DNA of 64,000 bases, taken from assembly GCF_036971445.1 (NCBI RefSeq), contig NC_091472.1:229772001-229836000 (forward strand), in the 5' to 3' direction. The notes below the pieces were generated by a model that worked only from the letters and a program-made list of their open reading frames with translations, was not told the DNA's origin and did no database searches. The translations under genes and the position numbers were made by a program. Shown here in pieces: positions 527 to 62,455 of this stretch (position 1 is its first letter; each line of letters opens with the position of its first letter). The stretch is from Narcine bancroftii (lineage: Eukaryota).

Positions 527-810
527 ATTCGTTACTCTTCTCCCAGTTATGGCACACAGGTTGGTGATCTCGGTGATTTCGTTCAGCTTTACAACTGAGG
601 CTCTCAGAGCGTCCTTGGTGCTGGGCACTCCTGCAGAGAGAGAGAGGGGGTGACAGTTGTACCAGACATTCCAACCAAGAATTATTTCTGCACAACATGG
701 AATGGAGTTAATTCCAATCACCCCTTGCTCTGAAAGATTCCCATTCTCCTGGACCTACCTGAACAGTGGAGAATCTGCACTGCAGCGATAGCGAGCAGGA
801 AGAACTGCAT
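527..810 (-). CDS. spp2: SPP2-like secreted cystatin-domain protein, copy A (5' part only, exons 1-2; the rest lies left of the window)
   Basis: Exon 1 810-759 encodes MQFFLLAIAAVQILHCS+G (52 nt, donor GTAGGT, phase 1). Exon 2 630-527 encodes (G)VPSTKDALRASVVKLNEITEITNLCAITGRRVTN (104 nt, acceptor ctgcag, donor GTAAGT). DALRASVVKLN resembles SPP24 DALSASVVKVN. Exon sizes match the other four copies. Confidence 0.8.
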
Positions 811-906
811 TCTGCCACTTGTGGGATCAGTCGCTGGTTGCTCAGAGTAAAGGAGCTGCTTCTCTCTTTCTTTCTCTCGATCTGTCCTCTCCTCATTCAC
901 CTCGGT

Positions 907-931
907 CTTTATATCTTGCACCTCCACCACA
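907..931 (-). promoter_or_regulatory. Core promoter of copy A: TATA box plus RUNX-like site
   Basis: TATAAAG (minus strand) at 907-913, ~100 bp upstream of the ATG. ACCACA at 926-931. The same arrangement occurs in all five copies. Confidence 0.6.
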
Positions 932-1734
932 TCCAAACATTGACACGTTTGCTCAGCTTGAAAGTCGTGGGCTCCGGAACAAGGTGGGCACTAACATGGG
1001 CAGAGCTTCCTCCAAGTAGGGTCATCGTGTTTGGATTTGGTGGGAAGCTGGTGAGATAGTGCTTTATTATTCCGTAGGATACTAAATCAAACACTGGTGG
1101 AAGAAAGGAAATGGTTATTGAGAGGAGCACAAAATCACTCTGTCCATGCAATGAGCTCCTGGAATTATTCAGCCATGCACTGATGATGTCAATTTGGATA
1201 ACTTACCACACCAAGGTGTGGTTTGGAGTTTGTGAATTAGACTGTCCCTTCCCATTGAATTGAAAAAAAATGTTTCCTGCAAAGATCAAACACATGAGTG
1301 GGAAACAGATTCTCTTTTCTGGAGCCATCTGCTGCCAGGCTTAACATGATGAAGGGCTCAGGTCCGAAGCATTGCTTTCCCTTCACTTCTTCTGGATGCT
1401 GTGTATCCCGCTGAGTTTCTCCAGCACGTTTGTGCACTGCACTTGACCCCAGCATCCACAGACCTTCTTGCTTAACTTGACTCCAAGAAGATCTCAATTG
1501 CCATTAATATGATTGGACAGCCAATCAGTCACACTCTTTTGAAGACAGAATATCATTTGAACATTTTTATATTATGCAATGTGGCATTAATATACAATGT
1601 AAATAAAAGGTAAATGTAGCGGTTAGTACAACACTCTCGCACCCCCACAAACACAGGTTTAAATCCGGAGCTGTCTGTAAGCACTTTGTACATTTTCCCC
1701 AAGTCTGCATGGATTTCCTCTAGGCAGTCCGGTT

Positions 1735-3520
1735 TCAGGTTCAGATTCCAGATTTATAGTCGGAGCATATATATGACATCACATACAACCCTGAGATTCT
1801 TTTCCCGCCAGGTAAGGCAGAATTACCGCTTAATGGTAGTGCAAAAAAAAGTACTCAATGTACACATGTAAACAAATAAGAAAATGTAAACAAATTGACT
1901 GTGCAGTACAGAGAGAAAAAAATCAACAAAGTGGAAAAGTAAGAGTCCTTAAATGAGTCCCTGATTGAGTTTGAGTCTAGGGTGGAGGAGCAGCAGCTGT
2001 TCCTGAACCTGGTGGTGGACACAGCCCAGGACATGACGGGAAAAACCCTCCCTACCATCAAGAACAACTGTAGGGCATCACTATCTCAAAGGATCTTTCC
2101 TGGATGCAACGCACTAATGGCATCATGAAGAAATCACGCCAGCATCTCTGCTTCCTCAGGTATTTGTGGAGGTTTAGTATGACACCAAAAACCCTGGAAA
2201 ATTTCCTGAACCTGGTGGTGTGATCATTGTGGCACCTCTACTCCTTTCCTAATGGTAGCAGTGAGAACAAAGCATGTGCTGGGTGGTGTGGATCCTTGGT
2301 GATTGCTGATGTTCTCAATATTGGGGAGGGTTTTGCCTCTCATGTCCTGGGCTGTGTCCACTAACTTTTGTAGGATTTATGCTCAGGGGCATTGGTGTCC
2401 CCATACCGGACTGTAATGCACCCAGTCAGCACACTTTACACCACACGTCTATAGAAATTTGCCAGGGTTTCCAGTATCATACCAAACCTCCGCAAACTCC
2501 TGAGGAAGTAGAGGTGTTGGCATTCATTCTTCACAATGCCATTAGTGTGTTGGGTCAAGGAAAGAGCTTTCGAAGATAGAGATGCCCAAGAACTTAAATT
2601 TACCCACCATCTCCACCTCTGATCCCCTAATGATCACTAGATCTCAACCTCTGGTTTTCCCTTCCTGAAGTCAATAATCAGCTCCTTCACTGAATGTAAG
2701 GTTGTTATTGGGGCATCATTCAGCCAAGTTTTGTATCTCCCTCCTGTATGCTGACATATCGCCCCTTTTTATACAACTGACTACTGTGGAATCAGCAGTA
2801 AATTTCTAGGTGGTTTTATTGTTCTGAGCCATGCAGTCAAACATGTACAGCAAATAGAGCAGGGGACTAAGGACACAGGCCCTGTGTTGCCCTGGTACTG
2901 ATGGCGATTGAGGAAATATTCTTAACATCTTTACTGGAGGTGAGGAAATTGCACAATATTGTGTTGTGTCCCAGGTTTTGGAGTTCGCTGATCAGTTTTG
3001 AGGGGATGATGGTGTTAAATGCCGAACTGTTGTTGATAAAGAGCATCTTGATATCCAGGTGTTCCAGGGCTTTGTGTAGAGCCGGTGAGATGGCATCTGC
3101 CATAGACCTGTTGCTATGACAGGCGAATTGGAACAGACCCATATTGCTGCTCAGACAGGAGCTGATGTGCTTCAACACCAGCCTTTCAAAACACTTCCTC
3201 ACTGTTGACGTGAGTGTCACTAGTCAATAGTCATTAAGACAGGTTACGACACTCTTTTTGAGCACTGGTATGATTGATGCCTGTTTGAAACAGGTGGGTA
3301 CTATGCCCTGCTGAGTGAGATATTGAAGGTATCTGTGAATACTTTGGTAAGTTGGTTAGCACAGATTTTTAATACTTGGTTGAAATACTCAGTCTGGACT
3401 GGATGCTTCACTCGGATTCACTCTCTCTGCATGTCATCCAGAGGATCATCAGGGAACATGGAAGTACGGTAGTGGTTCTTCCTTGTTCTTGTGGTTGAAT
3501 CAGGCAGAGAATTCCTCCCA
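1735..3520 (-). mobile_element. Decayed non-LTR retrotransposon (Rex1/Babar-L2-like RT)
   Basis: ORF 2867-3220 contains LTSTVRKCFERLV and LFINNSSAFNTIIPSKLI, RT motifs typical of this clade. Many stops. Confidence 0.7.
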
Positions 3521-3675
3521 TATTTCAAAGACATACAGGGTTAGTTGGTTAATTGTGATCTTTTGATGATCCTCTGTATTGACTGTATTGTCTGATGTTT
3601 TGCAGCTACCGTCCTACACAATGAAGCAGTCAGACAGGACCCTCTGATTTGTGCTCCTTTATAAGGTTGTCAAGT

Positions 3676-9381: not shown

Positions 9382-9419
9382 GCAAACATACGCATTCACA
9401 CCTGAACAGTCGATACTGG

Positions 9420-12091: not shown

Positions 12092-15000
12092 TTAATGTTG
12101 GTGCCTGGAATCCTCGTGTTCCTTGGAAGGACAGAATTAAGAGAACTGTTATTTTCCGGTCGGCTATCTTTGCTCCGAGTTCAGTATTTTATTCCTAGTG
12201 AAGGCAGCAATCAGACGACAACTATAGGGCACAGTTATACTTACATTTGAAAATTCTTCATGTGATAATTCTGTTGACTGACTTTTTGCCTGAATAAAAA
12301 TAGCAAAGACACAATTTTAGAATTATCCTCAAGTCAAAATGCAAAAACAATACTTCATTGTAAATCAGGAAGAGAGAACAAATAAAAGTTTGGGTTTCTA
12401 TTTGAAAGGGAGTTCAGTAAAGAACCCGAGTCCTCACTTTTTTAGTGTTACAATAATCGAGGAGTGTAGTGGGTTGAGGATCAATGGCCATTCTAATGTT
12501 GGAATAATGTCCCATCAACTGGCCTTCGTCAGCACCCAGAATCTCCGTCTGTGACAAGAAGAGATTATAATTTGCCAGATTAATCCATGGATTATATCTG
12601 TCCACTCACCATTGGAGTAGTGAGGGCGCACTGCTGCCTGCGATCTGGATCACTGCAAAGATCAGAGAGCAAACAGCAGTGATTTTGGAAAACCCAATAA
12701 CAACTGTGGCCCTATCTTTCATGAAGATGTAATATTATCTTCAGGTTCTATTCAATGCCTAATCCAAGTTTCCTTATTGTTTCAAGCTGCTCTTTTACAG
12801 AGAAGTCTGGTTCAACTTATTTGGGTTAGTGTCAGATATAACGGGGTAAAGTTAACTCCCCCACTCATCTTCCCATGAACCACCCCAGATTCCAACACTC
12901 ACCAGCAACAATTTACTGCCGTCTAACCCACAACTGTTTGGTGTGGAAGTGGGAACTGGGCCACCCTGAGGGAGCCCACCCAGACACAAGGAGAACATGC
13001 AATCTCCACACTGACTGCACCTAGTGTAGGATGGAAATTGGGAAACTAGAGCTGAGAAGCAGCAGCAACACCTGCTGTTCTCTCCCAAAATCTCTCTGTA
13101 AGAGAGATGAAACAGATAAAAATCTCTAATTAAACTTACATTTGAAGATTCCCGGACTTCTGTCTCTTCTGATTGACTTCTCACCTGTATAACAATATTG
13201 ATAATGTTATGTTCAGGACAAGGTAAATGACAACCAAATAAATTAATGTTGATCTCAAGATTATGAACATTTTATTGTTCAGTCTGGGCATGGCAAAAAC
13301 TGATTTAATGACTCAATAAGATGGTGATGAAGCCTCCACATACTCAGCACTTTACAGCAATGTTACTGCTACGTGGCCCTGGGTCAAAGGTAACCTAATG
13401 ACCAGGGACAATCCTCTCAACTGGTGCTTGTTGCATTGAACCTGCATCAGGAAGGGTGAGGACTTGGTGTTTTCTGTCGTAGAATGCAACACACTCTGTG
13501 TCTGATGCCACCCCTTCCTTCTACATTTAAAGCTATTCAGACAGGACCATGGATCAGAAAGATTTATGGGGATGTGGGAAAAATGATTTATATTTCAATG
13601 TACAGAACGGTCACAGGACCTTCTTCCCCACGAGCTTGTGCACCGTGAATACATCAATTTACTGTCAATCCCTGCACATTTTGGCAAATGGAGCCAGCTG
13701 AGGTAAACAACCTGGTTGGCCTGGATGAGATGGGCTGAAGGGACTTTATGATGCCATGAATCTCACAGGAGCTCGGCTCATTTCACCTTCAGAGAACCAA
13801 TTCAGGCTCTGTATTGGGATTAGATCATTTGACATGCAGTGGAAAGCCCACCTCTGAACCTCGTCATTCTTGTCATATTTTCATCTGGTACTTGTTTCCA
13901 ACCTGGCACAAATCAAGATCACGAAGATCGCGAACTCACAAGGCCTTTGTGAATACTCACATCTGATGTGTTCTCGAGGGATGTCTCCACGGATCTGGTT
14001 TTGACCTGTAAGCAAACATTAACAATTAAGCATTCGGCATAGGTCGTAAGGATTAACAGAGATCAGTTAATACAAAGGTAATTTACCACTGTGCTATTGT
14101 ATCATCTGGACATCAGGGGATCTTTGTTTAGAGCTCAGTCTTTGAGGGAGGTTCATTGCGAATATCTCAAAAATGTGCACTGCAGCAATGTTCAGTGGAG
14201 TTTGCTGCAATGGAGAACAGGGTCTGTGGGTCTGCTGCATTAACGTTCCACAGAATATCTCATTTAATTGAGGTGATTTGAAAGGTGTTGCTCTCCAGAA
14301 ATCATTGGTTGCATCTGTGCAGATTCCATGGTTGTGCTCACTCTCATTCTAGGTCACCCTAAATTCAGTGAAGAACAAACTCATCCTCGGAGAGCTCAGC
14401 GTTATGGCAGTGCTTGGTGTGCACACATTACAAGGATCTCTATTGACATGGGGTAATTATGTAACTAAATAGAATCCTCAAACCTGGCACAGCTTAACCT
14501 TAGTTATAGGCCTATTGTAGGTAAGAATTAGATGATAAAGCTCCTGGATTACATTTACCTTTAATGATGCTTCCAGTGACAAATCTTCTGACTGGCTTTG
14601 CCTCTGTATTAAAATAAATGCATATGTTTAGTTCAGAATTCACGGTTGCATAATGTAAATACTCTTTATTCACATATCTCCTAAAATGTTAAAATTTAAT
14701 TTACTTCATTAATAATGCGGTACAAAGCCCTTCTGGACCATGAAACCTGTCACAACCAGTGGGCCTACCAACCCCATCCGTTTTGTAGGTGAGAATATAC
14801 CGGAGTACGTGGGGAAAAGCAATGCAGGTCACGGGCAGAACGCACAAACTTCTCCCAGACGGTGATGGATTTGACAGTCACTGGGGCTGTAAGAGGGCTG
14901 CTTTACCAATGTGAAAGAGCTAATCATGGAACTTTTTACAGTTCTAATCAAAAGGTCAGAATTCAAGATCAATGAGAAAAGCATCTCCTAAATAGACGGC

Positions 15001-18000
15001 AGATCCTCTCCCACTGATTCCAATTCCCACCTGGCTTAGTCCCCGATGGAAACATCATTACTTTGATCTTCACCACGGAAGGCCAAAATCTCTTTTATTA
15101 CCTGATGCAATTTACTAACATGCACATGATATAGGTATTGGGGATTTGATAAACTGAGAGACTCTGGCTGAATTTTAGAGTGAGGAAGATCTCCTTAGTA
15201 TCACATGTTCTATAGTCATCACTCTCTGGAGGATGGAGAACTGTGGGGTCAAGGTATGGTGGGTGGGGGCAGCATGATGTTCACCATTAACTGGGTTGAC
15301 TTCCCTCAGAACTATTAAATTGTGCCAATTTCAGGAGGAAATTGCTATATGAGGTTGCCCCCAGGGATTGGCTTGATGTTGGCAGTGTTTTGAAAGTCCA
15401 GACTGTCGTCCGGGGCACCTCTGTCATTGAGATCCTCAGATTTGATCTTGTTGCTGAGAGTCAAAAAATTAAACTTACGTTTGAATGTTCCTCCAGTGAA
15501 GACTCTTCTGATCTGCTTTTCACCTATATTACAATATTAAGGTTTTTATGTTGAGCCCAGATTGCAGAATACACTTGATAATAATAAGCTTGTATTAAAC
15601 AACAAAGAACATTGCATGATAGACCATCAAAATTTCTTTCATTTATCATTATTGTGTTGAGCACAGTGCTACTGTTGGTGGTCCCTGACAACCGATGCTC
15701 TACAAATAATGTCGTCACCACAATCCCATTACTTTGGCATTCCTTCATCTTCAGGGGGAGAACCCATTCACCTTCCATATTGGGGGAAATTTTATTTTCC
15801 CTTGATGAATTTTTGAAATTTCTGACTGGAATCAGTCACCTGATTTCTCTCCCCTAATGCACTGAACTGAAATAATTTTGTAGCTCCGTTCTGGAAAAGC
15901 TGAGCATGGGATTTTACAACTTTATGAATAATTGAGACCAATGTGAAAATCATTTGTCAATACTCACATTTGAAATGTCCTCAAGTGATGACTCTGTCAA
16001 TTCTGTTAGATCCTGTTGGTAAAATGCAACGTTCACATCTTTAGTCCAGGAAATCAATAAAAATTTAACAAAAAACTCATGGGTTTCAAATCCCATTGAC
16101 TTGAAATGTATAACTGTGCGGTTACCTCAAATCTGGTTTCACTCGATTCCATGGAGTCACTCTCGCTGTCAACAGTCTTCAGACCTTCACACTCCACGTC
16201 AACGTATGCCACCTTATCAGCAAAATATTCCACCCGGCTTTTGCAAAACCCTCCTTCCTGTTGGAATAACATGTTGGGTCAAGTCACAAATTATTGCAGA
16301 GTCTGGACTGAAACAGGTTGTGATTTAGAATATAGAGCATTACTCCCTTGAGCCTATGATGTGGTACTAAACTATGGAAACACACTCCATAACAATCTAA
16401 ATTTTCGCCACCTCCCACCCATAACTCAATTTCCTGACATCCAAGTGCACATCTAAGAGCTTTTTGAATGTCCCTATTGTACCATTTATCCACCATCACC
16501 ACCAATGCATTCCAGGCACCCACCACTATCTGTGTGAAAATCTTACCTCTGATATCTCCCCAAACCTTTCTCCAATCACCTTCAACAGATGTTTCTATTA
16601 TAGTTGCTAACGTTGCTCCAGGAAAATGGTTCTGGCTGTCCACCCTATCTCAGCCCTTCAACAACTTAACGATGTACGTCGGTTAAGTTACCTCTCATTC
16701 TTCATCACTCCAAAGCGAAAAGCACTAGCTCTGCCAACCTTGCTTCATATGACATATTCTACAATTCAGGCAAAAGCCTGGTAAATCGCCTCTGCACCCT
16801 TTCAAAAACATTTACATCCGTCCTGTGATGACATGACCAGAACTGGTTTAATCTTCATTGTACATCATTTTGCAGCACATAATCCACAATGGCATGTGTT
16901 ATTTCAATCTTCATCAGTTTTTGAGGCTATTTATCAGCAGTCATGGCCTGCAAGTTATATGGAAAAGCACTCGTGGAGTCAAACAGCCCACTGGGTATGT
17001 ACTGACAAGTAAGTATTCATTTTACACTCATCCCATTGCCCCTATCCAATCTCCATTCTGTCACTTCCACCCCCAAGATTCCCTGGCCAGCAATCTACCC
17101 ACAGGGAAACTAACCAGTCCAAAGGATCTTTGGATTGGGAGGAAACCACACAGCCACAAAGAAAAGATGCAAACACCACAGGGGCAGTACCTGAGGTCAA
17201 TAAACTGGAGTTGTGGAGCCATTTCAATTCTATCTCTGCAACAACACTCTTTACTCAAGGTCACCTTTATTGTCATGTGAGAAAGTTTGTTTTTAAATAG
17301 TCCAGCAAGACGACCCAAACTTAGCACACACATAGTTTCCCTTGATATTACTAAGAACCCAGGGGTCTTTGTACCAGGTAACTTTAGGCTATGTTAATTT
17401 CAGGAGTTTTGTGCTGTGGTCCAATACACTACTCACAGCGGATTCTGATGCCACATGATGCTCAGGACTCACCGCGATCTTTCTGGGGCGGAAGTAGCAG
17501 CTGGGATCATCAAATTCCAGTCCGGAATTCTTGGAGCAGACGGTTTCTTTCACGGAGAATGTTAAATCCACGTTGTAGGACAGTTTGCCCGTGCGATAAG
17601 TCTATTAACAGGAAACAGGTCATGAACGTTAGCCATTGCAAATTGGTCAGATAAATCTTGGAGCAAACCATCTGAATGTTCCCTGTCAGTGGTTACAATG
17701 GGCCATCGGAATGACAGGGCAAGACAGACTAGAGATTAAACTCAGCCCAGCAACTATTTAACCCTTTGTCCGTCAGTGTGAAGATATTTAATTTGAAGGG
17801 GATATGAATGAATAAGTCTCCGACAATCAGGATTTGGAAATATATTTAAGAAGAAATATATATCAGACTATGGATGAAATTTGAAACAACAGTTTCACAT
17901 GTGGCTCCAATCTCCAAAGATAAAGACAGATTTAGAATTTCAATTCTTGAACTAAGACAGACACAAATTTAGATATAGACAGAGAGCATTACAGCACAGG

Positions 18001-18453
18001 CCCTTCAGCCCACAATGTTGTGCCAAACTATGTCAACCTTCTCCTCAACAATCTACTTTATCCTTATCCAACACCCATTCTCCTCTGTTTTGTTCCTGGT
18101 CACTGAACTGTGTTGATATGTGCTGTTCCTGCAGACCCCATCTGCGAAATCCACCTAAACCAGGAGACACTTACATTGGTCATTCTCCTCCCAGTGATGC
18201 CACACAAGTTGGGGATCTCAGTGATATAATTCAGTTTCAGAACTGAGGCTCTCAGAGCATCCTCAGGAACAGGCACCGCTGTAGAGAGAGAAGGAATATT
18301 TTACCAGCTGATTCCTTTACACAGGAGAACGTTATCACGGACTGAATCCCATTGCCAATCAGCCCATGCTCTGTGTAATTCCCACTCTCCCCTAAACCTA
18401 CCTGAGCAGTGGAGGATCTGCACTGCAGCGAGAGCGAGCAAAAGGTATGGCAT
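12092..18453 (-). CDS. spp2: SPP2-like secreted phosphoprotein, copy B (11 coding exons, ~238 aa, six 15-aa acidic Ser-rich modules)
   Basis: Exons: 18453-18402 MPYLLLALAAVQILHCS; 18278-18175 AVPVPEDALRASVLKLNYITEIPNLCGITGRRMTN; 17601-17473 TYRTGKLSYNVDLTFSVKETVCSKNSGLEFDDPSCYFRPRKIA; 16257-16126 EGGFCKSRVEYFADKVAYVDVECEGLKTVDSESDSMESSETRFE; 16012-15968 DLTELTESSLEDISN; 15523-15479 VKSRSEESSLEEHSN; 14603-14559 RQSQSEDLSLEASLK; 14005-13961 VKTRSVETSLENTSD; 13184-13140 VRSQSEETEVRESSN; 12289-12245 AKSQSTELSHEEFSN; 12121-12092 EHEDSRHQH*. All introns are GT-AG and the frame is open. The last acceptor (AAG) is the least certain. Confidence 0.85.
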
Positions 18454-23458: not shown

Positions 23459-26400
23459 TTAGTGTTGGTGCCTGGAATCCTCGTGTTCCTTGGAAGGACA
23501 GAATTAAAAGAACTGTTATTTTCAGGTGGGCTATCTTTGCTCCGAGTTCAGTATTTTATTCCTAGTGAAGGCAGCAATCAGAGGACAACTGTCGGGCACA
23601 GTTATACTTACATTTGAAAATTCTTCATGTGATAATTCTGTTGACTGACTTTTTGCCTGAATAAAAATAGCAACGTCACAATTTTAGAATTATCGCCAAG
23701 ACACAAAGCAAAAACAATACTTCATTGTAAATCAGGAAGAGAGAACAAATAAAAGTTTGGGTTTCTATTTGAAAGGGAGTTCAGTAAAGAACCCGAGTCC
23801 TCACTTTTTTAGTGTTACAATAATCGAGGAGTTGAGGATCAATGGCCATTCTAACGTTGGAATAATGTCCCATCAATTGGCCTTCGTCAACACCCAGAAT
23901 CTCTGTCTATGACAAGAGAGATTATCATTTGCCAGACTAATCCATGGATTATGTCTGTCCACTCTCCATTGGAGTAGTGAGGGCGCACTGCTGCCTGCGA
24001 TCTCGATCACTGCAAAGATCAGAGAGCAAGCAGCAGTGATTTTGGAAAACCCACTAACAACTATGGCCCTATGTTTCATTAGGATGTAATATTATGTTCA
24101 GGTTCTATTCAATGCCTAATCCAAGTTTCCTTATTGGTTCATGCTGCTCTTTTCCAGCGTAGGCTGGTTCAGCTTATTTGGGTTAGTGTCAGATATAACG
24201 GGGTAAAGTTAACTCCCCCACTCATCTTCCCATGAACCACCCCAGATTCCAACACTCACCAGCAACAAATTACTGCCGTCTAACCCACAACTGTTTGGTG
24301 TTGAAATGGGAACTGGGCCAGCCTGAGGGAGCTCACCCAGACACAAGGAGAACATGCAAACTCCACACTGACTGCACCTAGTGTAGGATGGAAATTGGGA
24401 AACTGGAGCTGAGAAGCAGCAGCAACACCTGCTGTTCTCTCCCAAAATCTCTCTGTAAGAGAGATGAAACAGATAAAAATCTCTAATTAAACTTACATTT
24501 GAAGATTCCCGGACTTCTGTCTCTTCTGATTGACTTCTCACCTGTATAACAATATTGATAATGTTATGTTCAGGACAGGGTAAGTGACAACCAAATAAAT
24601 TAATGTTGATCTCAAGATTATGAACATTGTATTGTTCAGTCTGGGCATGGCAAAAACTGATTTAATGACTCAATAAGATGGTGATGAAGCCTCCACATAC
24701 TCAGCACTGTACAGCAATGTTACTGATACGTGGCCCTGGGTCAAAGGTAACCTAATGACCAGGGACAATCCTATCAACTGGTGCTTGTTGCATTGAACCT
24801 GCATCAGGAAGGGGGAGGACTTGGTGTTTTTTGTCGTAGAATGCAACACACTCTGTGTCTGATGCCACCCCTTCCTTCTACATTTAAAGCTATTCAGACA
24901 GGACCATTGATCAGAAAGATTTATGTGGATGTGGGAAAAATGATTTATATTTCAATGTACAGAACAGTCACAGGACCTTCTTCCCCACGAACCTGTGCAC
25001 CTTGAATACATCAATTTGCTGTCAATCCCTGCACGTTTTGGCAAATGGAGCCAGCTGAGGTAAACAACCTGGTTGGCCTGGATGAGATGGGCTGAAGGGA
25101 CTTTATGATGCCATGAATCTCACAGAAGCTCGGCTCATTTCACCTTCAGAGAACTAATTCAGACTCTGTATTGGGATTAGATCGTTTGACATGCAGTAGA
25201 AAGCCCACGTCTGAACCACGTCAGTCTTGTCATATTTTCATCTGGTACTTGTTTCCAACCTGGCACAAATCAAGATCACGAAGATCGCGAACTCACAAGG
25301 CCTTTGTGAATGCTCACATCTGATGTGTTCTCGAGGGATGCCTCCACAGATCTGGTTTCGACCTGTAAGCAAACATTAACAATTAAGCATTCAGCATAGG
25401 TCATAATGATTAACAGAGATCAATTAATGCAAAGGTAATTTACCACTGAGCTATTGTATCATCTGGACATCAGGGGATTTTGTTTAGAGCTCAGTCTTTG
25501 AGGAAGGTTCACTGCGAATATCTCAACAATGTGCACTGCAGCAATGTTCAGTGGAGTTTGCTGCAATGGAGAACAGGGTCTGTGGGTCTGCTGCATTGAC
25601 CTTCCACAGAATATCTCATTTAATTGAGGTGATTTGAAAGGTGTTGCTCTCCAGAAATCATTGGTTGCATCTGTGCAGATACCACGGTTGTGCTCACTCT
25701 CATTCTAGGTCACCCTAAATTCAGTGAAGAACAAACTCATCCTCGGAGAGCTCAGTGTTCTGGCAGTGCTTGGTGTGCACACAGTACAAGGATCTCTATT
25801 GACATGGGGTAATTATGTAACTAAATAGAATCCTCAAACCTGGCACAGCTTAACCTTAGTTATAGGCCTATTGTAGGTAAGAATTAGATGATAAAGCTCC
25901 TGGATTACATTTACCTTTAATGATGCTTCCAGTGACAAATCTTCTGACTGGCTTTGCCTCTGTATTAATATAAATGCATATGTTTAGTTCAGAATTCACG
26001 GTTGCATAATATAAATACTCTCTATTCACATATCTCCTAAAATGTTGAAATTTAAATTACTTCATTTTTAATGCAATAGAAAGCCTTTCTGGACCATGAA
26101 ACCTGTCACAACCAATGGGCCTACCAACCCCATCCGTTTTGTAGGTGAGAATATACCGGAGTACGTGGGGAAAAGCAATGCAGGTCACGGGCAGAACGAA
26201 CAAACTTCTCCCAGACGGTGATGGATTTGACAGTCACTGGGGCTGTAAGAGGGCTGCTTTACCAATGTGGAAGAGCTAATCGTGGAACTTTTTACAGTCT
26301 TAATCAAAAGGTCAGAATTCAAGATCAATGAGAAAAGCATCTCCTAAATAGACAGCAGATCCTCTCCCATTGATTCCAATTCCCACCTGGCTTAGTCCCC

Positions 26401-29400: not shown

Positions 29401-29822
29401 TGTCAACCTTCTCCTCAACAATCTACTTTATCCTTATCCAAACCCATTCTCCTCTGTTTTGTTCCTGGTCACTGACCAGTGTTGATATGTGCTGTTCCTG
29501 CAGACCCCATCTGCAAAATCCACCTAAACCAGGAGACACTTACATTGGTCATTCTCCTCCCAGTGATGCCACACAGGTTGGGAATCTCAGTGATATCATT
29601 CAGTTTCAGAACTGAGGCTCTCAGAGCATCCTCAGGATCAGGCACCGCTGTAGAGAGAGAAGGAATATTTTACCAGCTGATTCCTTTACACAGGAGAACG
29701 TTATCACGGACTGAATCCCATTGCCAATCAGCCCTTGCTCTGTGTGATTCCCACTATCCCCTAAACCTACCTGAGCAGTGGAGGATCTGCATTGCAGCGA
29801 GGGCGAGAAAAAAGTATGCCAT
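23459..29822 (-). CDS. spp2: SPP2-like secreted phosphoprotein, copy C (11 coding exons, ~238 aa)
   Basis: Exons: 29822-29771 MAYFFLALAAMQILHCS; 29647-29544 AVPDPEDALRASVLKLNDITEIPNLCGITGRRMTN; 28959-28831; 27618-27487; 27373-27329 DLTESTESSLEDISN; 26870-26826 VESRSEESSLEEHSN; 25959-25915 RQSQSEDLSLEASLK; 25362-25318 VETRSVEASLENTSD; 24541-24497 VRSQSEETEVRESSN; 23656-23612 AKSQSTELSHEEFSN; 23488-23459 EHEDSRHQH*. Splice sites are intact. Exons 3-4 encode the same protein as copy B. Confidence 0.85.
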
Positions 29823-37200: not shown

Positions 37201-40200
37201 TTACTTAGATCTTCACCACGGATGGCCAAAATCCCTTTTTTTGCCTGATGCAATTTACTAACGTGCACATGATATAGGTATTGGGGATTTGATAAACTGA
37301 GAGACTGTGGCTGAATTTTAGAGTGAGGAAGATCTCCTTTGTATCACATGTTCTATAGTCATCACTCCCTGGAGGATGGAGAACTGTGAGGTCAATGTAT
37401 GGTGGGTGGGGGCAGCGTGATGTACACCATTATTTGGGTTGACTTCCCTCAGAACTATTAATTCGTTCCAATTTTAGGAGGAATTGCTATATGAGGTTAC
37501 CCTCATGGATTGGCTTAATGTTGCTATTGTTTTGAAAGTCCAAGACTGTCATCCGGCGAACCTCAATCATTGAGATCCTCATATTCGATCTTGTTGCTGA
37601 GAGGCAATAAATTAAACTTACCTTTGAATGCTCCTCCAGTGAAGACTCTTCTGATCTGCTTTTCACCTATATGATAATATTAAGATATGTATGTTGAACA
37701 CATTGCAGAATACACTTGATAATAATAAGCTTGTATTAAAGAACAAACAACATTGCATGATAGACATAAAATTGATGACCATCAAAATTTCTTTCATTTA
37801 TAATTATTGTGTTGAGCACTGTGCAACTGTTGGTGGATCCTGACGACCGATGCTCTACAAATAATGTCGTCACCACAATCCCATTACTTAGATATTCCTT
37901 CATCTTCAGGGGAGAAAACATTCACCTTCCATATTGAGGACAATTTTATTATCCCTTGATGAATTTTTGAAATATTTGTCTGCAATCAGGCACCTGATTT
38001 CTCTCCCCTAATGCACTGAACTGAAATAACTTCATAGCTCCGTTCTGGAAAAGCTGAATACGAGATTTTACAACTTTATGGATAATTGAGAAAATCATTT
38101 GTCAATACTCACATTTGAAATGTCCTCAAGTGATGACTCTATCGATTCTGTTAAATCCTGTTGGAAAAATGCAATATTCACATGTTTAGTCCAGGAAATC
38201 AATAAGAATTTAGCAAAAAAAAACTCATGGGGTTTCAAATCCCATTGACTTGAAATGTATAACTGTGCGGTTACCTCAAAGCTAGTTTCAATCGATTCCA
38301 TGGAGTCACTCTCGCTGTCAACAGTCTTCAGACCTTCACACTCCACATCAACGTATGCCACCTTATCAGCAAAATATTCCACCCGGCTTTTGCAAAACCC
38401 TCCTTCCTGTTGGAATAACATGTTGGGTCAAGTCACAAATTATTGCAGAGTCTGGACTGAAACAGGATGTGATTTAGAATATAGAGCATTACTGCCCTTC
38501 AGCCTATGCTGTGGTACTAACCTATGGAAACACACACCATAACAATCTGAATTTTCCCCACCTCCCACCCATAACTCTATTTTCCCGACATCCAAGTGCA
38601 CATCTAAGAGCTTTTTGAATGTCCCTATTGTACCATTTATCCAGCATCACCACCAATGCATTCCAGGCACCCACCACTATCTGTGTGAAAAACTTACCTC
38701 TGATATCTCCCCAAACCTTTCTCCAATCACCTTCAATATATGTTCTATTATAGTTGCTGATGTTGCCCCTGGAAAATGGTTCTGGCTGCCCACCCTATCT
38801 CAGTCCTTCAACATTTTAACTGTGTACCTCAGTTAAGTGACCTCTCATCTTTCGTCACTCCAAAGAGAAAAGCACTAGCTCTGCCAACCTTGCTTCATAT
38901 GACATATTCTACAATTCAGGCAACATCCTGGTAAATCTCCTCTTCACCCTCTCAAAAGCATTTACATCCGTCCTGTGATGACGTGACCAGAACTGGTTTA
39001 ATCTTCATTGTTCATCATTTTGCAGCTCCTAATCCACAATGGCAGGTGTTATTGCAATCTTCATCAGTTTTCGAGGCAGTCATGGCCTTCTTGTTATATC
39101 GTCAGAATTCGTGGAGTCATACAGCCCATTGGGTATGTACTAACAATTAAGCATTTATTTTACACTGATCCCATTGCTCCTCTCCAATCTCCATTCTGTC
39201 ACCTTCACCCCCACGATTCCCTGGCCAGCAATCTACCCACAGGGAAACTAACCAGTCCAAAGGATCTTTGGATTGGGAGGAAACCACACAGCCACAGGGA
39301 GAAGATGCAAACTCCACACAGGTAGTACCTGAGGTCAATAAACTGGAGCTGTGGAGCCACTTCAATGCTATCTCAACAGCAACACTCTTTACTCAAGGTC
39401 ACCTTTATTGTCATGTGAGAAAGTTTGTTTTTAAATAGTCCAGCAAGACGACCCAAACTTAGCACACACATAGTTTCTTTTGATATAACTCAGAACCCAG
39501 GGGTCTTTGAACCAGGTAATTTTATGCACTTTTAATTTCAGGAGTTTTGTGCTGTGGTCCAATACACTCCTCACAGAGGATTCTGGTACCATATGATGCT
39601 CAGGACTCACCGCGATCTTTCTGGGGCGGAAGTAGCAGCTGGGATCATCAAATTCCAGTCCGGAATTCTTGGAACAGACGGTTTCTTTCACGGAGAATGT
39701 TAAATCCACGTTGTAGGACAGTTTGCCCGTGCGATAAGTCTATTAACAGGAAACAGGTCATGAATGTTAGCCATTGTAAATTGGTCAGATAAAGCTTAGA
39801 ACAAAAATCTGAATGTTCCCTGTCAGTGGTTACAATGGGCCATCGGAATGACAGGGCAAGACAGACTAGAGATTAAACTCAACTCAGCAACTATTTAACC
39901 CTTTGTCCTTCAGTGTGAAGATGTATTGGAGCCTTTAATTTTAAGGGGATATGAATGAATAAGTCTCCGACAATCAGGATTTGGAAATATATTTAAGAAG
40001 AAATATATATAAGAAGAATATGGATGATTTTCAAACAACAGTTTCACATGTGGCTCCAATCTCCAAGGATAATGAAAGATTCAGAATTTCAATTCTTGAA
40101 CTGAGACAGACACAAATTTATATATAGAGAGAGAGCATTACAGCACGGGCCCTTCAGCTCACTATGTTGTGCCAAACTATGTCAACCTTTTCCTCAACAA

Positions 40201-40605
40201 TCTACTTTATCCTTATCCAACACCCATTCTCCTCTGTTTTGTTCCTGGTCACTGAACAGTGTTGTAATGTGCTGTTCCTGCAGACCCCATCTGCGAAATC
40301 CACCTAAACCAGGAGACACAAACCAGGAGACACTTACATTGGTCATTCTCCTCCCAGTGATGCCACACAGGTTGGGGATCCCAGTGATATCATTCAATTT
40401 CAGAACTGAGGCTCTCAGAGCATCCTCAGGTACGGGCACCCCTGTAGAGAGAGAAGGAACATTTTACCAGCTGATTCCTTTACACAGGAGAACGTTATCA
40501 CGGACTGAAGCCCATTGACAATCTGTGAGATTCCCACTCTCCCCTGAACCTACCTGAGCAGTGGAGGATCTGCACTGCAGCAAGGGCGAGCAAAAAGGAC
40601 AGCAT
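34250..40605 (-). CDS. spp2: SPP2-like secreted phosphoprotein, copy D (module exon 9 has a broken donor)
   Basis: Exons: 40605-40554 MLSFLLALAAVQILHCS; 40441-40338 GVPVPEDALRASVLKLNDITGIPNLCGITGRRMTN; 39739-39611; 38406-38275 ...SMESIETSFE; 38157-38113 DLTESIESSLEDISN; 37666-37622 VKSRSEESSLEEHSK; 36747-36703; 36149-36105 VKTRPVEASLENTSD; [35329-35285 VRSQSEETEIRESSN, donor GAAAGT]; 34447-34403; 34279-34250 EYEDSRHQH*. Confidence 0.8.
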
Positions 40606-40666: not shown

Positions 40667-40719
<53 letters not shown>

Positions 40720-46900: not shown

Positions 46901-46975
46901 AATATAAGAGGAAGAGAAAAGCTGGCCAGCAGTGCAACGAGTAGGTATGTCAGCAGAACGGACAGTACCATAAGT

Positions 46976-56744: not shown

Positions 56745-57834
56745 TAAGGTGTATTTAAGGGAGAGATTGATAGGGGTTCTGATTAGCCATTGCATCAAAG
56801 GTTATGGGGAAGAGGTGGGCAGTGGGGCTGAGTGGGAAAATGGATCAGCTCATGATTGAAAGATGGGACAGACTCGATCAACTGAATAGCCTATTTCTGC
56901 TACTATGTCTTATGGTCTTATCTGCTAAAGAGCAAAACCAGCCACAGAAATAATTAGTAACCTGGTGTTATTAACTCTACAAGGTACCTAGCAGCCAAAC
57001 AAATCCAACCCACACCAGGGTCCAGGGAGCGGGTGGCTTGTGCCGATTGAACTACTTTTAGCTGATTCTACTGTCAAGATCATGTGTTGCTCATCCCTCA
57101 TTGTCCTTCAACTCCGAATTTCCTCATTTCTTTTGGGGAGCTATGAGGAGCTATTTCCACCACAGGGTGTGGATTCCCACTAAGGGCGGCCAAGTCAAGA
57201 GGCCCGAGTGACAATAGTCAGGTGCTGTTTTTTTTTTAGCTCTATTTAGTGCTGCTAACATTTTATTCTGGACGAATTAACTTTGGTGACTTTAAATATC
57301 CCATGGCTGTGGTTGCCTTGAAGCCCATCATCAGTCCAGGGCTTAGAATGTCTTTTTCAATTACAATATCGCAATGTTTGGCCATCATGCCACATGTGAA
57401 TTGCCACACTTGGAAGAATAAGTGAATATTTTTCTTGTACTTTTAATTTGATCCACAGAACAAAAGACACAACCAAAGGATAGATCATTTACAAACTATA
57501 GAATCTCTCAGTTATAGTGAAATGTACAGTCAGAGATCTGCAGAAACCCCTCCTTCCCCCCCCCCCCACCACTCCCTTATATGAACAATGAATAACAACA
57601 GATTAACAGCTTCTTCAATTTGATCGAGGCCTTCCGTGTCCACAAAAAGCCACTCATTTTTATTCACGGTCAATGTCTTGATTCCTTCTGGATTGGATTT
57701 CTGGAACCAACACAATGAATAGAGGTGTCATTTTTATGATCATCTAAGATGAGTTTGAACTCAATATTATTGTTGTACAGAAGGATCAAGAGGCAAGTGT
57801 CTAGCCTAAAGTCCTACTTACATCTGCAAGTTCC

Positions 57835-60800
57835 TCAGCCAATTATCCTTTTGACCTGCTTTACACCTGGAAGGAGACAATATTTCTCAGTAGCCTGAGT
57901 ATATCAAAGCTTTTGCATATCTTTGCAATGCATAAATGTAACTGAGAAACAGTTTGTGCATTACACTCGACTTCAGCATCTGCCGACTATCTTCCTTAAC
58001 TCTATTTGTATAGAATTATTTTTTGTTTTATGCAGTTAGTTACATAAATAAGATAAACAATATCAAATAAATGCATTTATAAAGGGTTAATTGCTTGAAT
58101 TTCAAAGTTGGAATCAAATGATTCCTCTCAAACATTTCCTGTTCAGTAGACAATGGACTCTCTGCCCCTATTGGTCAGAGACAATGGATTAACCGGCAAG
58201 TTGTTGAGATTATTGATCAGGTTGCCATTGTTGTAAGTATGGGGTTAATGGTTATAATCTGGGAGCTGGAGTGAATGTCATCAGCTCTCTCTTTGATGCC
58301 ATGAGGCGAAGAGAAGCGTTTGACCCCTCTTGGCCTGAACTCATTAAAATTTATGAGAATGAGGGAGGATCTCATTGAAACTTTTTGAATGTTGAAAGGC
58401 ATGGACAGTGTAGATCAGTGGATCCCTACTTACCACTTTAAGTATTCCCTATGTCATAGGTGGCCTGTGATTAGTAGGGTATGTGGATGGAGAGAAAAAG
58501 TTTGAAAACCAGTTTTAATTGTACCTAATTGACTCGTTATGTGCACGGTTTCATAACTCCAAAGGAAATGGGCCAATGACCATTTTTCTCAAGCAAAATA
58601 TTTCATTAACAATTGGGTCTAGAGCAGTGGTTCTCAACCTTCCCTTTCCACCCACATACCACCTTAAGCAATCCCTTACTAATCACAGAGCACTGATGGC
58701 AGAGGGATTACTTAAAATGGAAAGAAAAAGGTTGAGAACCACTGGATTAGATGTAGGAAGGTTTCATTTCTTCCAAGATTTACACAAATCCCATCCTCAC
58801 TCACTGCATCAGATGGAGCCCAAAATCAATGCATCTTAACAAGTCCAGCTAGTACCCTTTTACTCTTACCAATAATCTCCTGATTTACACTTACGTTTGT
58901 AGGCTCCTTGACGAGGCCTTCTCTTGAAGTTTATCTGTGTTTAAAAAAATGCATGTATTTAGTGCAAAGGAGCCAATGGTTAGTGTAGCAGTTAGTGCAA
59001 TGGTATAACAGTGCCAGTGACCTGTCAAATGCGCCACTGTCTGTAAGCAGTTTGCATGTTCTCCCTGTGTCTGCTTGGGTTTCTTCCAGGTGCTTCGGTT
59101 TCCTGCCACATTCCATAGACATATGGAGGGAGTAGGTTAATTTGGTGCATTTGGGGAGCATGGGTTTGTAGGCCGGAAGGGTCCGTTGCTATGCTATATC
59201 TCTAAATTAAAATTCAATTAAATATCAAAAAAATGTCGTTCTTAGCTCTTTCTAGGAAGTGCATCCCATTACTTGGAAATCAGATATGGATTTAGGGATG
59301 GAGAGGTGGCAAGTTGAATTGTGTTCTTATATTCCACGAGAAAATAACTTTTTTTTTTAAATATGGAGCCCATATTTACAGTATGTTGGTTTGAAGGTGT
59401 GAGGGGCTCTTGAAGGCCCGTCTCGTTGGTAACCCCTTAACTCTATTATTGTCTGTATTGAGAATAAATAATTCTTTCTGGCACTCTCCTAGTTTCTTTT
59501 TCTGTTTTCTTTCTATATTAGCCTAGGGTTGATGGGTGGGAGGGATAAGAGGTGTTTTTTAAATGCATATACTACATATATAATTTTTTATATACCTTTA
59601 TTGTACATAAAATTCTTAAATATAATGTTAAAAAAGTCAATGTTCTGAAGCCCTAAATATAAAGAGGAACTGTTCTCATAAATAATAGCAAAATGAATAA
59701 AGATTAGAAATCTGTTCCATGTACATGCATCAAGGTTCAATGATTTCAATAAATGTCAGAAAAGAGATACAAAGTACATTGGGTGATTGACACATGCGAC
59801 CAATGTTTCTAATATCACTGTCAATGAACCAATCAGGTGGGTTCAGGTCAGGCTTCCGTTTGGGGTGTCAGCAGAACATGAAGTTAAAAATAGAGGAAAA
59901 TTCTGATTCAAAGCACAAAATGCCCATGGCCCTGATCTGCAGGATGGCGGACTAACCTCAATACTGTTTTCACTCGATTCCATAGATCTACTTCTGTTGT
60001 CAATCGTCCTCAAGCCCCGGCACTCCACATCAATGTCAACAATCTTGCCAGCAAAGTATTCAACACGGCTTTTGCAGAAACCTTTTGCCTGTAGAAGTGA
60101 ATTATTTATTGAAATTGCTGCATGTCGACAGTAGACTCCAAGATACCTCAATGTTACACCCTTTGCGCTGCGTTCTGCTTTATCTCAGTACACCCAAGAG
60201 CTTCAACGCTAGAGTAAAACACAGGGCTCACCGCATTCTTTTTGGAGCGGAAGCGGCATCTGGGATGATCAAACTGCAGTCGGGACTTTTTGGAGCAGAC
60301 GGTTTCTTTCACGTTGAAAGCTAAATCCACGTTGTATGAAAATTTGCCTGTGCGATAAACCTAATGAAGGGAAAGGTTGCATTATTATATACTTTTATAA
60401 CTCTAACACAGGCACAGTAAAACTTGGAGTGATGTAGATATTTACATTCAAAGGAGGCCTCGATGCCACATTCAGCATTAGTGATTGGCGCAATGCGAAT
60501 ACAGCACCAGTGACCGGGTTAGAATCTGTCGCTATCAGTCAGGAGTTTGTACGTTCTCCCCACGGTCTGCGTGGGTTTCTCTGGGTGCTCCAGTTTCCTC
60601 CCACCCTTCAAAATGTACAAGGTTGGTGGATTAATTGGTGGCCAGAATCAGCTTCCACCAAATTGTAAACAAATTAAAATGATCATATCACGTGACTTGA
60701 AGCTTTAATTTGTTAAACAGAAAATTATGCCTTTAACTGTCACGATGATAAAGTACTGGAATCTTCCACAACAGGTGAGAGGTAAACAGGATCTGAAAAT

Positions 60801-62304
60801 ATTTTGGACTGAGTCTCGTGGCATGGTTCCTTGACAACACCTTCTCCTTTTTAATGTCAATAGGACAAGGGAGATGATCATTGAGTTCAGGAGAAGGGAG
60901 AGACCACACCCCTGTCCACATTAACAAGGCTGAAATTTCTTCCAGTTCCTCAAATAAATATCTCCACTGACCTGATCTGGGAGAAACTGAAAGTACACCG
61001 ATGTCTCTACTCTCTTGGGTTGATGATAAAGTTCACCAATCCCCACCCCATCCTGCAACAACCTCTCCAGGTGCACCACTGTAAGCATGCTTGCTGGTAA
61101 GGGAGCTGCTCTGCTCAAGATCGGGAGAGCCATCACTGTTGCTCAGACCATCACACAAACTTCCCTGTTCTCCATGGACTCCATTCATATCCCTGTGGTG
61201 ATACAACCACTGGACCGTCTGTGACTGCCTGCGCTCTCCGCACTCCTACCTGCCTACTGCAGGGGGAAACCCACTGTACCTGCAGTGATGTCACCTGGGA
61301 GACTGGGTCCACCTACTCCCTGCCAATCACCGTCCTCATATAAAGGCTCACACTGGCCCTTGGGCTGGAGCAGAGCACACGGTGCCAGAAAGGATACAGA
61401 ACCTGGTGTGCAAGTTTTAAGCTAATTAAAGCCTGGTGGAGTACAGCCTTTTGTTGTTTGTGCTTGGTTGTTCGCACTGCAGTGCACCAGAATCCCCCAT
61501 TGCCTCGGAAAGCAGCCAACGTACTGAAGGATTCATTACATTTCAGACACACTCCCTTCTCCTTCTTCCCATTGGGGAGAATGTCTATATAAGTGTAAAA
61601 CCGCTCACTAATAGGTTTAAAGGCATTTCTTCCCTCCAGCCATTGGACTTCTGAATGACCCCCATAACGGTGCATCCATGCAGCCCTTGCTTGATGCTAA
61701 TTGGTCTTCCTTTTCATTGCAACCCTCTACTCTGTAAATTGTGCTCTTTACATGGCTGTATTAATGTTAGAGATAACCTATTAGTCTGCTTGCAGAAGAA
61801 CCCTTCTCATTTTACAAGGTATTTTTGTGATAAATAAACTTCTAACTTCAGAAATAAATTACATATCGAAAGGTCAGATGTTTCACATTTTAGCATCCAA
61901 TCAAAATCACTCAAACCATTTGTCATTAAATATATTAAATCTGATTAATCAATATAATACTCTGCTCATGTTGGAATGAAGCCGGCGCTATTTTTTACAC
62001 TGTTGACAGTGGAACTGTTTATAGGCGGGCAAACTTACATCTTTCATGCTTCTCCCAGCCACATTGCTGAGATTGGGAATCCGGGTGATCTTATTCAGTT
62101 TTATCAGTGATGCTCTCAGAGCAGCCTTGGGGTTTGGTGCTCCTGCAGAGAAAAGAAAGGCCTTCAGTCCTCTGCACACATGTCAGTGAGCCATCATAGA
62201 CTAAAGCTCATATTCCATGCTCCATGAGGTCTCCACTCTCCCCTGGACCTACCTGAGCAGTGGAGGACCTGCACTGCAGCGAGGGCAAGCAGGAAGAACT
62301 TCAT
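57835..62304 (-). CDS. spp2: Diverged basic SPP2-like paralogue, copy E (~162 aa, frameshifted cationic C-terminus)
   Basis: Exons: 62304-62253 MKFFLLALAAVQVLHCS; 62142-62039 GAPNPKAALRASLIKLNKITRIPNLSNVAGRSMKD; 60360-60232 VYRTGKFSYNVDLAFNVKETVCSKKSRLQFDHPRCRFRSKKNA; 60088-59957 AKGFCKSRVEYFAGKIVDIDVECRGLRTIDNRSRSMESSENSIE; 58934-58895 (40 nt) INFKRRPRQGAYK; 57866-57822 RVKQVKRIIG* (stop 57837-57835). A terminal non-coding exon starts at 57700 and its 3' end is homologous to the B-D 3'UTR. Exons 1-4 are secure; the tail model is inferred. Confidence 0.72.
58416..58744. mobile_element. hAT/Charlie-like MITE in a copy E intron
   Basis: Inverted termini CAGTGGTTCTCAACCT (58625) and AGGTTGAGAACCACTG (ending 58744). 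An outer CAGTGG at 58416 has an imperfect 8-bp TSD. Confidence 0.6.
61194..61491 (+). mobile_element. Solo LTR-like element in copy E intron 2
   Basis: Termini TGTGGTG...CACCAGA, 5-bp TSD ATCCC, internal TATAAA and ATTAAA. Confidence 0.7.
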
Positions 62305-62352
62305 TCTGCCACTCGTGGGATCAGCCGCTGGTCTCTCAGAGTAAAGGAGCCT

Positions 62353-62389
<37 letters not shown>

Positions 62390-62414
62390 CTACCCTCACC
62401 CCGCTGCCCCTGGT

Positions 62415-62455
62415 CTTTATATTCTGCACCTCCACCACATCCAAACACTGACTCA
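62415..62455 (-). promoter_or_regulatory. Core promoter of copy E
   Basis: TATAAAG 62415-62421, ACCACA 62434-62439, TGACTCA 62449-62455. Confidence 0.6.

Follow-up and report, generated by a model that had tools for sequence, protein, structure and literature searches.

The DNA analysed here, a stretch of 64,000 nucleotides from the genome of Narcine bancroftii (the window), is best explained as a segment of the elasmobranch spp2 tandem array that belongs to the spp2.3 clade and encodes two types of product, a reading to which we give a probability of about 70%. Five paralogues (A-E) were identified, all on the minus strand. Three of these (B-D) were found to end in acidic tails rich in Ser-x-Glu (S-x-E), while gene E was found to end in a basic tail that is read from a shifted frame.

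The five paralogues possess a 52-nt phase 1 exon 1 (ATG at 810, 18453, 29822, 40605 and 62304, minus strand) and a 104-nt exon 2, with exons of 129 nt and 132 nt found in four copies each (genes B-E) and with AG/GT ends on these shared core exons. Profile searches of the whole window returned 5, 5, 4 and 4 copies of these exons, respectively, each with E ≤ 5e-22, and no further core-exon copy below an E of 0.2. The coordinates and these searches thus bore out the five same-strand paralogues described in a previous reading of the sequence only. A possible exon 2 relic near 54879 and hidden gene copies within the A-B and D-E gaps were unsupported by the profile searches. For gene A only exon 1, encoding the signal peptide (759..810, 52 nt), and exon 2 (527..630, 104 nt), both on the minus strand, lie within the window (52 residues). 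As intron 2 of genes B-E has a length of 573-1678 nt, exon 3 of gene A is expected to the left of base 1 along with the remainder of the gene, in agreement with the earlier proposal that the cluster continues leftwards.

A signal peptide was recognised in the cluster genes, as judged from sequence and alignment. The cystatin cysteines of B-E are at positions 74, 87, 100 and 118, with a second loop of C-x17-C, and the motifs and the two disulfide loops previously reported are present; the loop sequence then quoted is that of B-D, with the second loop of E differing from it. Core dN/dS values of 0.24-0.43 in all six pairs indicate purifying selection.

Genes B-E almost certainly belong to the SPP2 family and to its spp2.3 clade. 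The best 120 of 124 database matches were all from sharks and rays, and 116 of these carry the name secreted phosphoprotein 24(-like) in one or more sources. The product of gene B is identical to the NCBI Narcine bancroftii protein 'secreted phosphoprotein 24-like' X2 (P0003), which passes the Pfam Spp-24 model (32.9 bits, cut-off 26), as does the closest relative of E (P0123, 34.1 bits). When E was scanned exon by exon, its exon 3 scored 19, below the cut-off as a fragment. The assignments to SPP2 and to a chondrichthyan made by the sequence-only reading were thereby upheld. The cathelicidin model (PF00666, cut-off 21) gave no match for P0003 or P0098, and P0123 and the third exons of B and E reached 13.4-17 bits. 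Fetuins and kininogens carry two or three tandem cystatin domains, whereas each gene here has one. Members of the SCPP family are recognised by SPARC-like 5' exons and phase 0 first introns, whereas a phase 1 first intron and a cystatin domain were found here.

In phylogenetic analysis, B, D and E fell within a 56-row group opposite six spp2.2-type rows with support of 100/100, the clade types being assigned by eye from the probe table of PMC13188829 and the trees containing no spp2.1 protein. Gene C joined B and D at 99 in a quick tree, and spp2.Like-type rows lay outside. The placement by phylogeny that the earlier reading had proposed as a check thus puts B-E within spp2.3. The quick tree comprised 110 rows, with 25 of 123 named matches omitted (23 with unparsable cores, P0003 and the isoform P0035), while a careful tree and the approximately unbiased (AU) test used 62 of these rows and only 118 columns.

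The expansion of spp2 across cartilaginous fish was described by Debiais-Thibaud et al. (BMC Biol 2026, PMC13188829), with nine genes on N. bancroftii chr4 given in their Table S14. The cluster itself is consequently already in print for this species, and is ordinary as reported. The lineage-specific tandem expansion previously suggested is indeed tandem, but it is elasmobranch-wide and published with the genes of this species included. None of the neighbouring genes sh3bp4, arl4c, nme9, vps8 and cops8 lies within the window. The window genes resemble the spp2.3 clade of that study in their tandem array, signal peptide, four-cysteine cystatin-like domain and S-x-E-rich tail. Its main text makes no mention of exon, splicing, frameshift, conversion or concerted; figures and alignments aside, it gives no description of the arrayed mini-exons, the frame-shifted gene type or the signs of conversion presented below. 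In the literature searched, again aside from the figures of that study, neither a basic tail in spp2.3s2 nor a conversion signal was found.

Genes B-D are whole-unit duplicates with a spacing of ~11 kb and an identity of 92-95%, introns included. Their tails are formed by five or six 45-nt phase 0 S-x-E exons, resulting in 12-13 S-x-E sites, a net charge of -17 to -25 and a mature pI of 4.5-4.7. Gene B (12092..18453, minus strand) consists of 11 exons for 238 aa, namely four core exons (18453-18402, 18278-18175, 17601-17473 and 16257-16126), an array of six mini-exons spanning 12245..16012 (16012-15968, 15523-15479, 14603-14559, 14005-13961, 13184-13140 and 12289-12245) and a terminal coding exon (12121-12092), with 12 S-x-E sites and a mature pI of 4.7. 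Gene C (23459..29822, minus strand) has the same 11 exons and a product of 238 aa with 13 S-x-E sites and a mature pI of 4.5. Gene D (34250..40605, minus strand) has five usable mini-exons, with a predicted product of 223 aa, 12 S-x-E sites and a mature pI of 4.7. Its fifth mini-exon (35285..35329, minus strand) possesses GA in place of the GT donor, and an in-frame skip of this exon is predicted. The sequence-only reading did not include the tail exons of B-E.

Gene E (57835..62304, minus strand) encodes a basic-tail spp2.3 type of 162 aa. Its four core exons (62304-62253, 62142-62039, 60360-60232 and 60088-59957) are followed by a frame-shifting exon 5 of 40 nt (58895..58934), five short of the 45-nt module, and by exon 6 (57822..57866), a 45-nt S-x-E module in the shifted frame that contains the motif KRVKQVKR. 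Exon 6 holds two stops in the old frame, with the new stop lying 13 nt before the last junction. The last exon (57421..57700, with ATTAAA at 57447), on the minus strand like the others, is non-coding and corresponds by homology to the terminal exon plus 3' UTR in B-D. The mature protein has three S-x-E sites, a pI of 10.7 and a net charge of +23, its tail of 23 residues (net +9) following a core that is itself basic.

It is very probable that this tail is homologous with the S-x-E module by way of a frameshift. On a matrix built from the six mini-exons of B, exon 6 of E scored 21.1, a value reached by none of 100,000 shuffles, and among 63,189 45-mers it ranked directly behind the 18 true modules. 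The homology of exon 5 to the module was weaker, with 79 of 5,000 shuffles reaching its score. When the exons of B were read in the shifted frame and compared with seven shark basic tails, a mean score of 16.2 was obtained, versus -7.8 and -6.0 in the other frames and a best of -3.4 among 3,001 shuffles. That E might be a spp2.1 member keeping an ancestral arginine-rich tail was considered and rejected, as in the probe table of PMC13188829 spp2.1 proved much more divergent, with the basic tail located in spp2.3s2.

Gene E could be either decaying or specialised, as it lacks Cys43, which is absent from only one other among 102 cores, and lies on a long branch of the tree, grouping with Hemitrygon P0123. 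Its being a decaying pseudogene, or its basic tail an annotation artefact, appears very unlikely. The loss of Cys43 would suit such a history, as would the fact that its protein was not among the seven candidates from a protein search with its own exon 4, and the tails of its relatives are mostly computer-predicted gene models. Against this, the frame of E is open with AG/GT at all six introns, its upstream block (described below) is intact and its dN/dS against B-D is 0.32-0.36. Moreover, as stops close the old frame, skipping of exon 5 would end the protein after one residue, and 13 species have kept the new frame. The stop of E is also too close to the last junction for nonsense-mediated decay by the usual rule.

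A basic-tail protein was identified in at least 13 of the 22 shark and ray species among the matches listed, a lower bound; when the P0076 tail was used as query, only four proteins were returned, all of them already among these matches, and an Atlas search with the tail region gave no usable match. The first tail exon encodes 13 residues in all 14 basic tails, and 13 of these share a valine (the exception being Heptranchias) for which the old frame must have had a stop, Ser or Leu at that position, and none of 197 acidic modules carries such a residue. Monophyly of the 14 basic-type cores was rejected (p-AU 6.3e-7). The six batoid cores, drawn from four orders, make up a single clade (100/97), and the shark cores group with acidic copies of the same lineage. 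This grouping by lineage in sharks, together with the AU test, therefore suggests gene conversion. The frameshift would have arisen once, before the shark-ray split, with conversion continuing to homogenise the core in sharks, and such a single origin with conversion is likely from these comparisons.

Alternatively, independent frameshifts in each lineage, following recent duplications, may have made the basic tails with no need of conversion. Any S-x-E module is by its nature rich in K/R when read in the shifted frame, and the grouping of shark cores by lineage is what a model of recent independent duplications (PMC13188829) predicts. Such a history is nevertheless unlikely, since it calls for approximately eight events, each needing the same exon length and, in all but one tail, the same valine, for which the acidic modules do not supply the precursor, and since the batoid cores are a single clade.

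In the catshark, spp2.3 genes are expressed in mineralising chondrocytes, with values for spp2.3s2 of 2692 TPM (Meckel's cartilage) and 2378 TPM (vertebrae), as compared to 2 TPM for gill, 0 for both liver and blood and near zero for denticles (PMC13188829), although these values come from paralogues 95-99% alike, between which reads may consequently be shared. That study described the catshark proteins, except spp2.1 and spp2.L2, as having no obvious arginine-rich tail. By our reading of the probe table, the spp2.3s2 highly expressed in cartilage is of the basic-tail type. Its probe (XM_038790375), read by eye, shares with E the 13-residue exon, the motif KRVKQ(I/V)KR and the same old-frame TAA, and an acidic end reading remains in its 3' UTR. 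It differs in carrying the basic module twice and in its stop being in the last exon, whereas E has one module, a stop in exon 6, a more basic core and no Cys43.

From family knowledge, the products of B-D are likely to act in the control of cartilage mineralisation. Mineralising chondrocytes would secrete them, Fam20C would phosphorylate their S-x-E sites, and both calcium and calcium-phosphate would be bound, with dose possibly tuned by the number of genes and exons. As acidic S-x-E-rich secreted proteins with phase 0 introns that are Fam20C targets, SCPPs are similar to B-D (PMC9122587). However, SCPPs derive from SPARC-like genes, and with the cystatin domain and phase 1 first intron of the window genes this likeness is a convergent design rather than membership.

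Gene E would represent the cationic counterpart of B-D. Its XBBXBX-type tail, a motif that is a weak predictor (PMC8007983), may bind polyanions of the same matrix, whether these are sulphated glycosaminoglycans or its sister proteins in phosphorylated form, and so anchor the cystatin domain in the matrix. For this predicted role the chances appear about even.

An improbable alternative is that E is a convergent cathelicidin-like defence protein, in which a cathelin-fold prodomain precedes a cleaved, cationic, amphipathic and antimicrobial C-terminal peptide. E alone among these genes shares this architecture, basic tails have a net charge of +7 to +12 and, in 13 of 14, a helical hydrophobic moment of 0.64-0.71, and a passage of a review on shark antimicrobial peptides names no cathelicidin (PMC6795676). 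An AlphaFold model of P0123, in line with the cystatin fold of SPP2, gave a long helix (22-36) and four strands with pLDDT of ~90 or more over 21-120 and an unstructured tail (pLDDT < 50). Its best Foldseek matches were cathelin, chemerin, cystatins and fetuin-B, while a PDB profile search gave cathelin domains as best matches. This may only reflect the nearest solved fold, as no chain named SPP2 was returned by the profile search. Furthermore, P0123 passes Spp-24 while falling short of the cathelicidin model (17 against 21), the E type is nested in spp2.3, no cleavage site was identified, and the catshark counterpart is a cartilage transcript almost absent from gill, blood and denticles.

Mammalian SPP2/Spp24 shares with the window genes the cystatin-like domain, the 19-residue disulfide loop and the serine-rich region, with its basic C-terminus having a counterpart in E only, and it differs from the cluster in being single copy, liver-expressed and circulating. 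As spp2.2 and P0127, which is likely the elephant-shark protein, use the acidic frame, the tail of E would be an analogue of the mammalian one rather than a retained homologue. BMP binding had been proposed by the sequence-only reading from the C-x17-C spacing. The spacing holds, and equals that of the 19-residue bovine TRH1 peptide, but the proposal is weak: PMC3753320 reports that BMP-2 is bound by the peptide of the loop, but that in the full protein replacing loop residues by alanine, cysteines included, has little effect, and that the C-terminus matters. All copies might still mainly sequester BMP/TGF-beta through this loop, with tails that merely tune affinity; mammalian Spp24 binds BMP-2 and TGF-beta more tightly by virtue of its arginine-rich C-terminus (PMC3753320), and E may have rebuilt a tail of that type. 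This is not exclusive of the array reading but has a rather low probability as the main role, with multiplied S-x-E exons and thousands of TPM being more in keeping with a component of the matrix than with a trap for ligands.

Taken jointly, these observations raise the possibility, held tentatively and at slightly less than even odds, that a charge pair made from one exon module serves elasmobranch cartilage mineralisation. Polyanionic phospho-S-x-E spp2.3 proteins would be accompanied by a polycationic sister that one 5-nt frameshift produced before sharks and rays diverged, and whose tail is kept by selection while conversion erases the age of the cystatin domain. Part of the supposed recent independent duplication would then be an old, concertedly evolving array. 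In batoids the cationic copy would have escaped conversion and been duplicated a further time (E/P0123 beside P0098/P0076). If true, one of the most highly expressed spp2.3 genes has a charge opposite to that of the current family model, changing the predicted chemistry, which would matter to the study of cartilage mineralisation in the boneless sharks and rays. E would also be a clean case of a frameshift yielding a conserved new protein tail, and gene conversion would undercut the use of spp2.3 trees for dating duplications and for relating copy number to skeletal mineralisation.

Upstream of gene E, a conserved block of the form TGAGTCA..TGTGGT, which may represent AP-1 and RUNX sites, was found at 62434..62455 (minus strand), 18 nt before TATAAA. 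Copies of this block, on the same strand, were located at 18612-18633, 29936-29957 and 40764-40785, with a degenerate copy at 926-947.

A protein search with exon 3 of gene B matched 124 proteins, of which the 120 listed all come from sharks or rays, almost every one under the name secreted phosphoprotein 24-like. The predicted product of gene B was identical, letter for letter, to P0003 (238 residues, NCBI, Narcine bancroftii), which makes this electric ray the most probable source of the window. P0003 scored 32.9 bits against Pfam Spp-24 (cut-off 26) and showed no cathelicidin match in the Pfam scan, bearing out the SPP2 membership proposed in the sequence-only reading. For P0123, to which gene E is most closely related, AlphaFold gives a cystatin fold whose best structural matches were cathelin, chemerin, cystatins and fetuin-B. 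With spp2.2 as outgroup, genes B, D and E fell inside the chondrichthyan clade spp2.3 (support 100/100), and gene C grouped with B and D in a separate tree. Clades were assigned by comparing the probe sequences given in PMC13188829 by eye; the spp2.2 probe corresponds to a divergent six-protein group here, and the spp2.1 probe is far more distant.

The chondrichthyan tandem expansion, likewise proposed from sequence, has already been described in PMC13188829 (BMC Biol, April 2026), where the family in cartilaginous fish is divided into four clades. The spp2.3 copies number seven in catshark and as many as fifteen in one skate, and are expressed in mineralising chondrocytes. Table S14 of that paper places nine N. 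bancroftii genes on chr4, and the cluster itself is already known.

On the minus strand of the window, five paralogues were found, lettered A to E in order of rising position, A being truncated by the left edge. The sequence-only description of this cluster proved accurate, as exon sizes and splice ends were recovered for all five: exon 1 (52 nt) and exon 2 (104 nt) in every gene, exon 3 (129 nt) and exon 4 (132 nt) in B to E, with AG/GT ends throughout and phases 1, 0, 0 and 0. Profile searches of the entire window gave five, five, four and four copies of exons 1 to 4, respectively, and no relics of them. Genes B, C and D are copies of an 11-kb unit (92-95% identity, introns included), and dN/dS of the core was 0.24-0.43 in all six pairs among B to E.

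The tail exons had been overlooked in the sequence-only reading. After exon 4, genes B and C carry six 45-nt phase-0 exons, closed by a short terminal exon; in D all six are present, the fifth without its GT donor. Every 45-nt exon translates into 15 residues, a module holding one or two S-x-E motifs, giving proteins with 12-13 such sites, a net charge of -17 to -25 and a pI of 4.5-4.7. S-x-E is given in PMC9122587 as the Fam20C consensus, and the tails share the design described there for the SCPP mineralisation genes, namely acidic S-x-E proteins with phase-0 introns. The build-up of S-x-E is noted in PMC13188829, the available text of which never mentions exons. On the family model, B to D would be secreted, phosphorylated by Fam20C and bind calcium-phosphate in mineralising cartilage, a course of events that we regard as likely.

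Gene E ends differently, its tail comprising exon 5 (40 nt) and exon 6 (45 nt). The 45-nt module recurs as exon 6, which scores 21.1 on a matrix built from the six exons of B (equalled by none of 100,000 shuffles) and, of 63,189 windows, is outscored only by the 18 true modules. This exon contains two stops in the acidic frame and is read shifted owing to the five bases missing from exon 5, resulting in a 23-residue tail of net charge +9 and a protein whose pI is 10.7. Exon 5 itself shows weaker homology to the module (79 of 5,000 shuffles reach its score), and its skipping is predicted to terminate the protein at once. When the acidic exons of B were read in the shifted frame, their mean BLOSUM62 score against seven shark basic tails was 16.2, compared to -7.8 and -6.0 in the remaining frames and -3.4 for the best of 3,001 shuffles. 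Of the two frames the acidic one came first: proteins of the sister clade spp2.2 end in it and so, judging by its repeats, does P0127, an unnamed protein that we take to be of elephant-shark type. The protein of E was absent from the database matches to its own exon 4, and it is missing a cysteine that 100 of 102 cores retain.

The basic type is widespread. The motif R(V/E)KQ(I/V)(K/R)R was present in at least 13 proteins among 123 named matches, and in at least 13 of 22 species (eight sharks, five batoids) among the matches listed. In all 14 basic types (13 proteins and E) the first tail exon encodes 13 residues and the tail has a net charge of +7 to +12, with valine at position 2 in 13. A valine here implies that the old frame reads stop, Ser or Leu; Ser or Leu stands at the corresponding position in none of 197 acidic modules. 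By eye, the catshark spp2.3s2 probe of PMC13188829 has the same 13-residue exon and old-frame TAA, its acidic ending left stranded in the 3' UTR. A single origin predating the shark-ray split would be the simplest reading. A second basic-type gene of N. bancroftii (P0098) lies outside the window and E is sister to P0123 of Hemitrygon (100/98), indicating two batoid sub-lineages.

The cores group otherwise. In a tree of residues 1-118 (118 columns) built on 62 of 110 rows, all six batoid basic-type cores formed one clade (100/97), and each of the eight from sharks lay beside acidic copies from the same species or the same order (e.g. 99/98, 100/98, 100/99). Constraining the 14 together, a grouping fixed before the tree was seen, cost 124 log-likelihood units (p-AU 6.3e-7). 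Such a combination, an old common tail joined to cores homogenised locally, suggests gene conversion in sharks. In PMC13188829, species-specific grouping is taken as recent independent duplication, with no mention of gene conversion in the portions available. Neither the frameshifted cationic type nor the signal of conversion was found in the main text of that paper (Fig. 9 or the alignments may show the tail) or in searches of open PubMed Central and bioRxiv papers.

Two database model pairs, P0033/P0035 (Narcine) and P0013/P0015 (Pristiophorus), have identical or 95% identical cores, one tail of each pair being read in the acidic frame and the other in the shifted one; tail charge might be switched by alternative splicing or by partial conversion. 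P0044 (Hemitrygon) and P0103 (Rhinoraja) have net positive tails without the frameshift motif, seemingly a second route to basic spp2.3.

For E, the favoured reading is that its basic tail would bind matrix polyanions (probability about 0.5). The tail matches the XBBXBX heparin-binding pattern; such motifs are described as not sufficient for binding (PMC8007983). Catshark spp2.3s2 reached 2692 TPM in Meckel's cartilage and 2378 in vertebrae, with 2 in gill and 0 in blood (PMC13188829), values that may include reads common to near-identical paralogues. Its embryonic values (266 and 1205) were the highest of six spp2.3 rows in Table 1 of that paper, the others being 17-123 and 140-774, in columns that we infer to be the 5-cm and 8-cm stages. 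A cathelicidin-like defence role, suggested by the architecture, is possible and fits this expression poorly. Polyanion binding is not exclusive of a BMP-trap role: the arginine-rich end of mammalian Spp24 increases affinity, and the loop alone is an uncertain site (PMC3753320).

Upstream of all five genes, a 22-nt minus-strand block with TGAGTCA and TGTGGT (926-947, 18612-18633, 29936-29957, 40764-40785, 62434-62455) sits 18 nt before TATAAA, in four exact copies and one with three mismatches (chance expectation 0). In form it resembles paired AP-1 and RUNX sites, an arrangement that would fit expression in chondrocytes. A 21/21-base match to the catshark spp2 forward primer of PMC13188829 (40845-40865, minus strand) lies about 95 nt upstream of the TATAAA of D; the upstream region is conserved from shark to ray, and transcription may begin ahead of the apparent TATA box.

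Four N runs of 128-158 nt (9254-9381, 20652-20809, 32952-33107, 51748-51895) touch no exon, three being intergenic beside simple repeats and one within a LINE. The interval between D and E (46900-54300) holds a pair of decayed LINE-type retroelements, one per strand. Their reverse-transcriptase fragments, at 49560-49928 (minus) and 47590-47847 (plus), both score below Pfam's cut-off; a 39-bp tandem array (51439-51731) interrupts the minus-strand element. Downstream of gene B, an 81-bp tandem array of six near-perfect copies (99%; 10471-10962) is either a recent expansion or an assembly artefact, and gene C has one diverged copy on its downstream side (near 21854-21980). The 5' leaders of B, D and E contain a (GA)n microsatellite (18504-18569, 40655-40716, 62355-62386) that is short in A and C; in the NCBI model of P0098 a repeat of this kind is translated into an 88-residue N-terminal extension, which is probably spurious.
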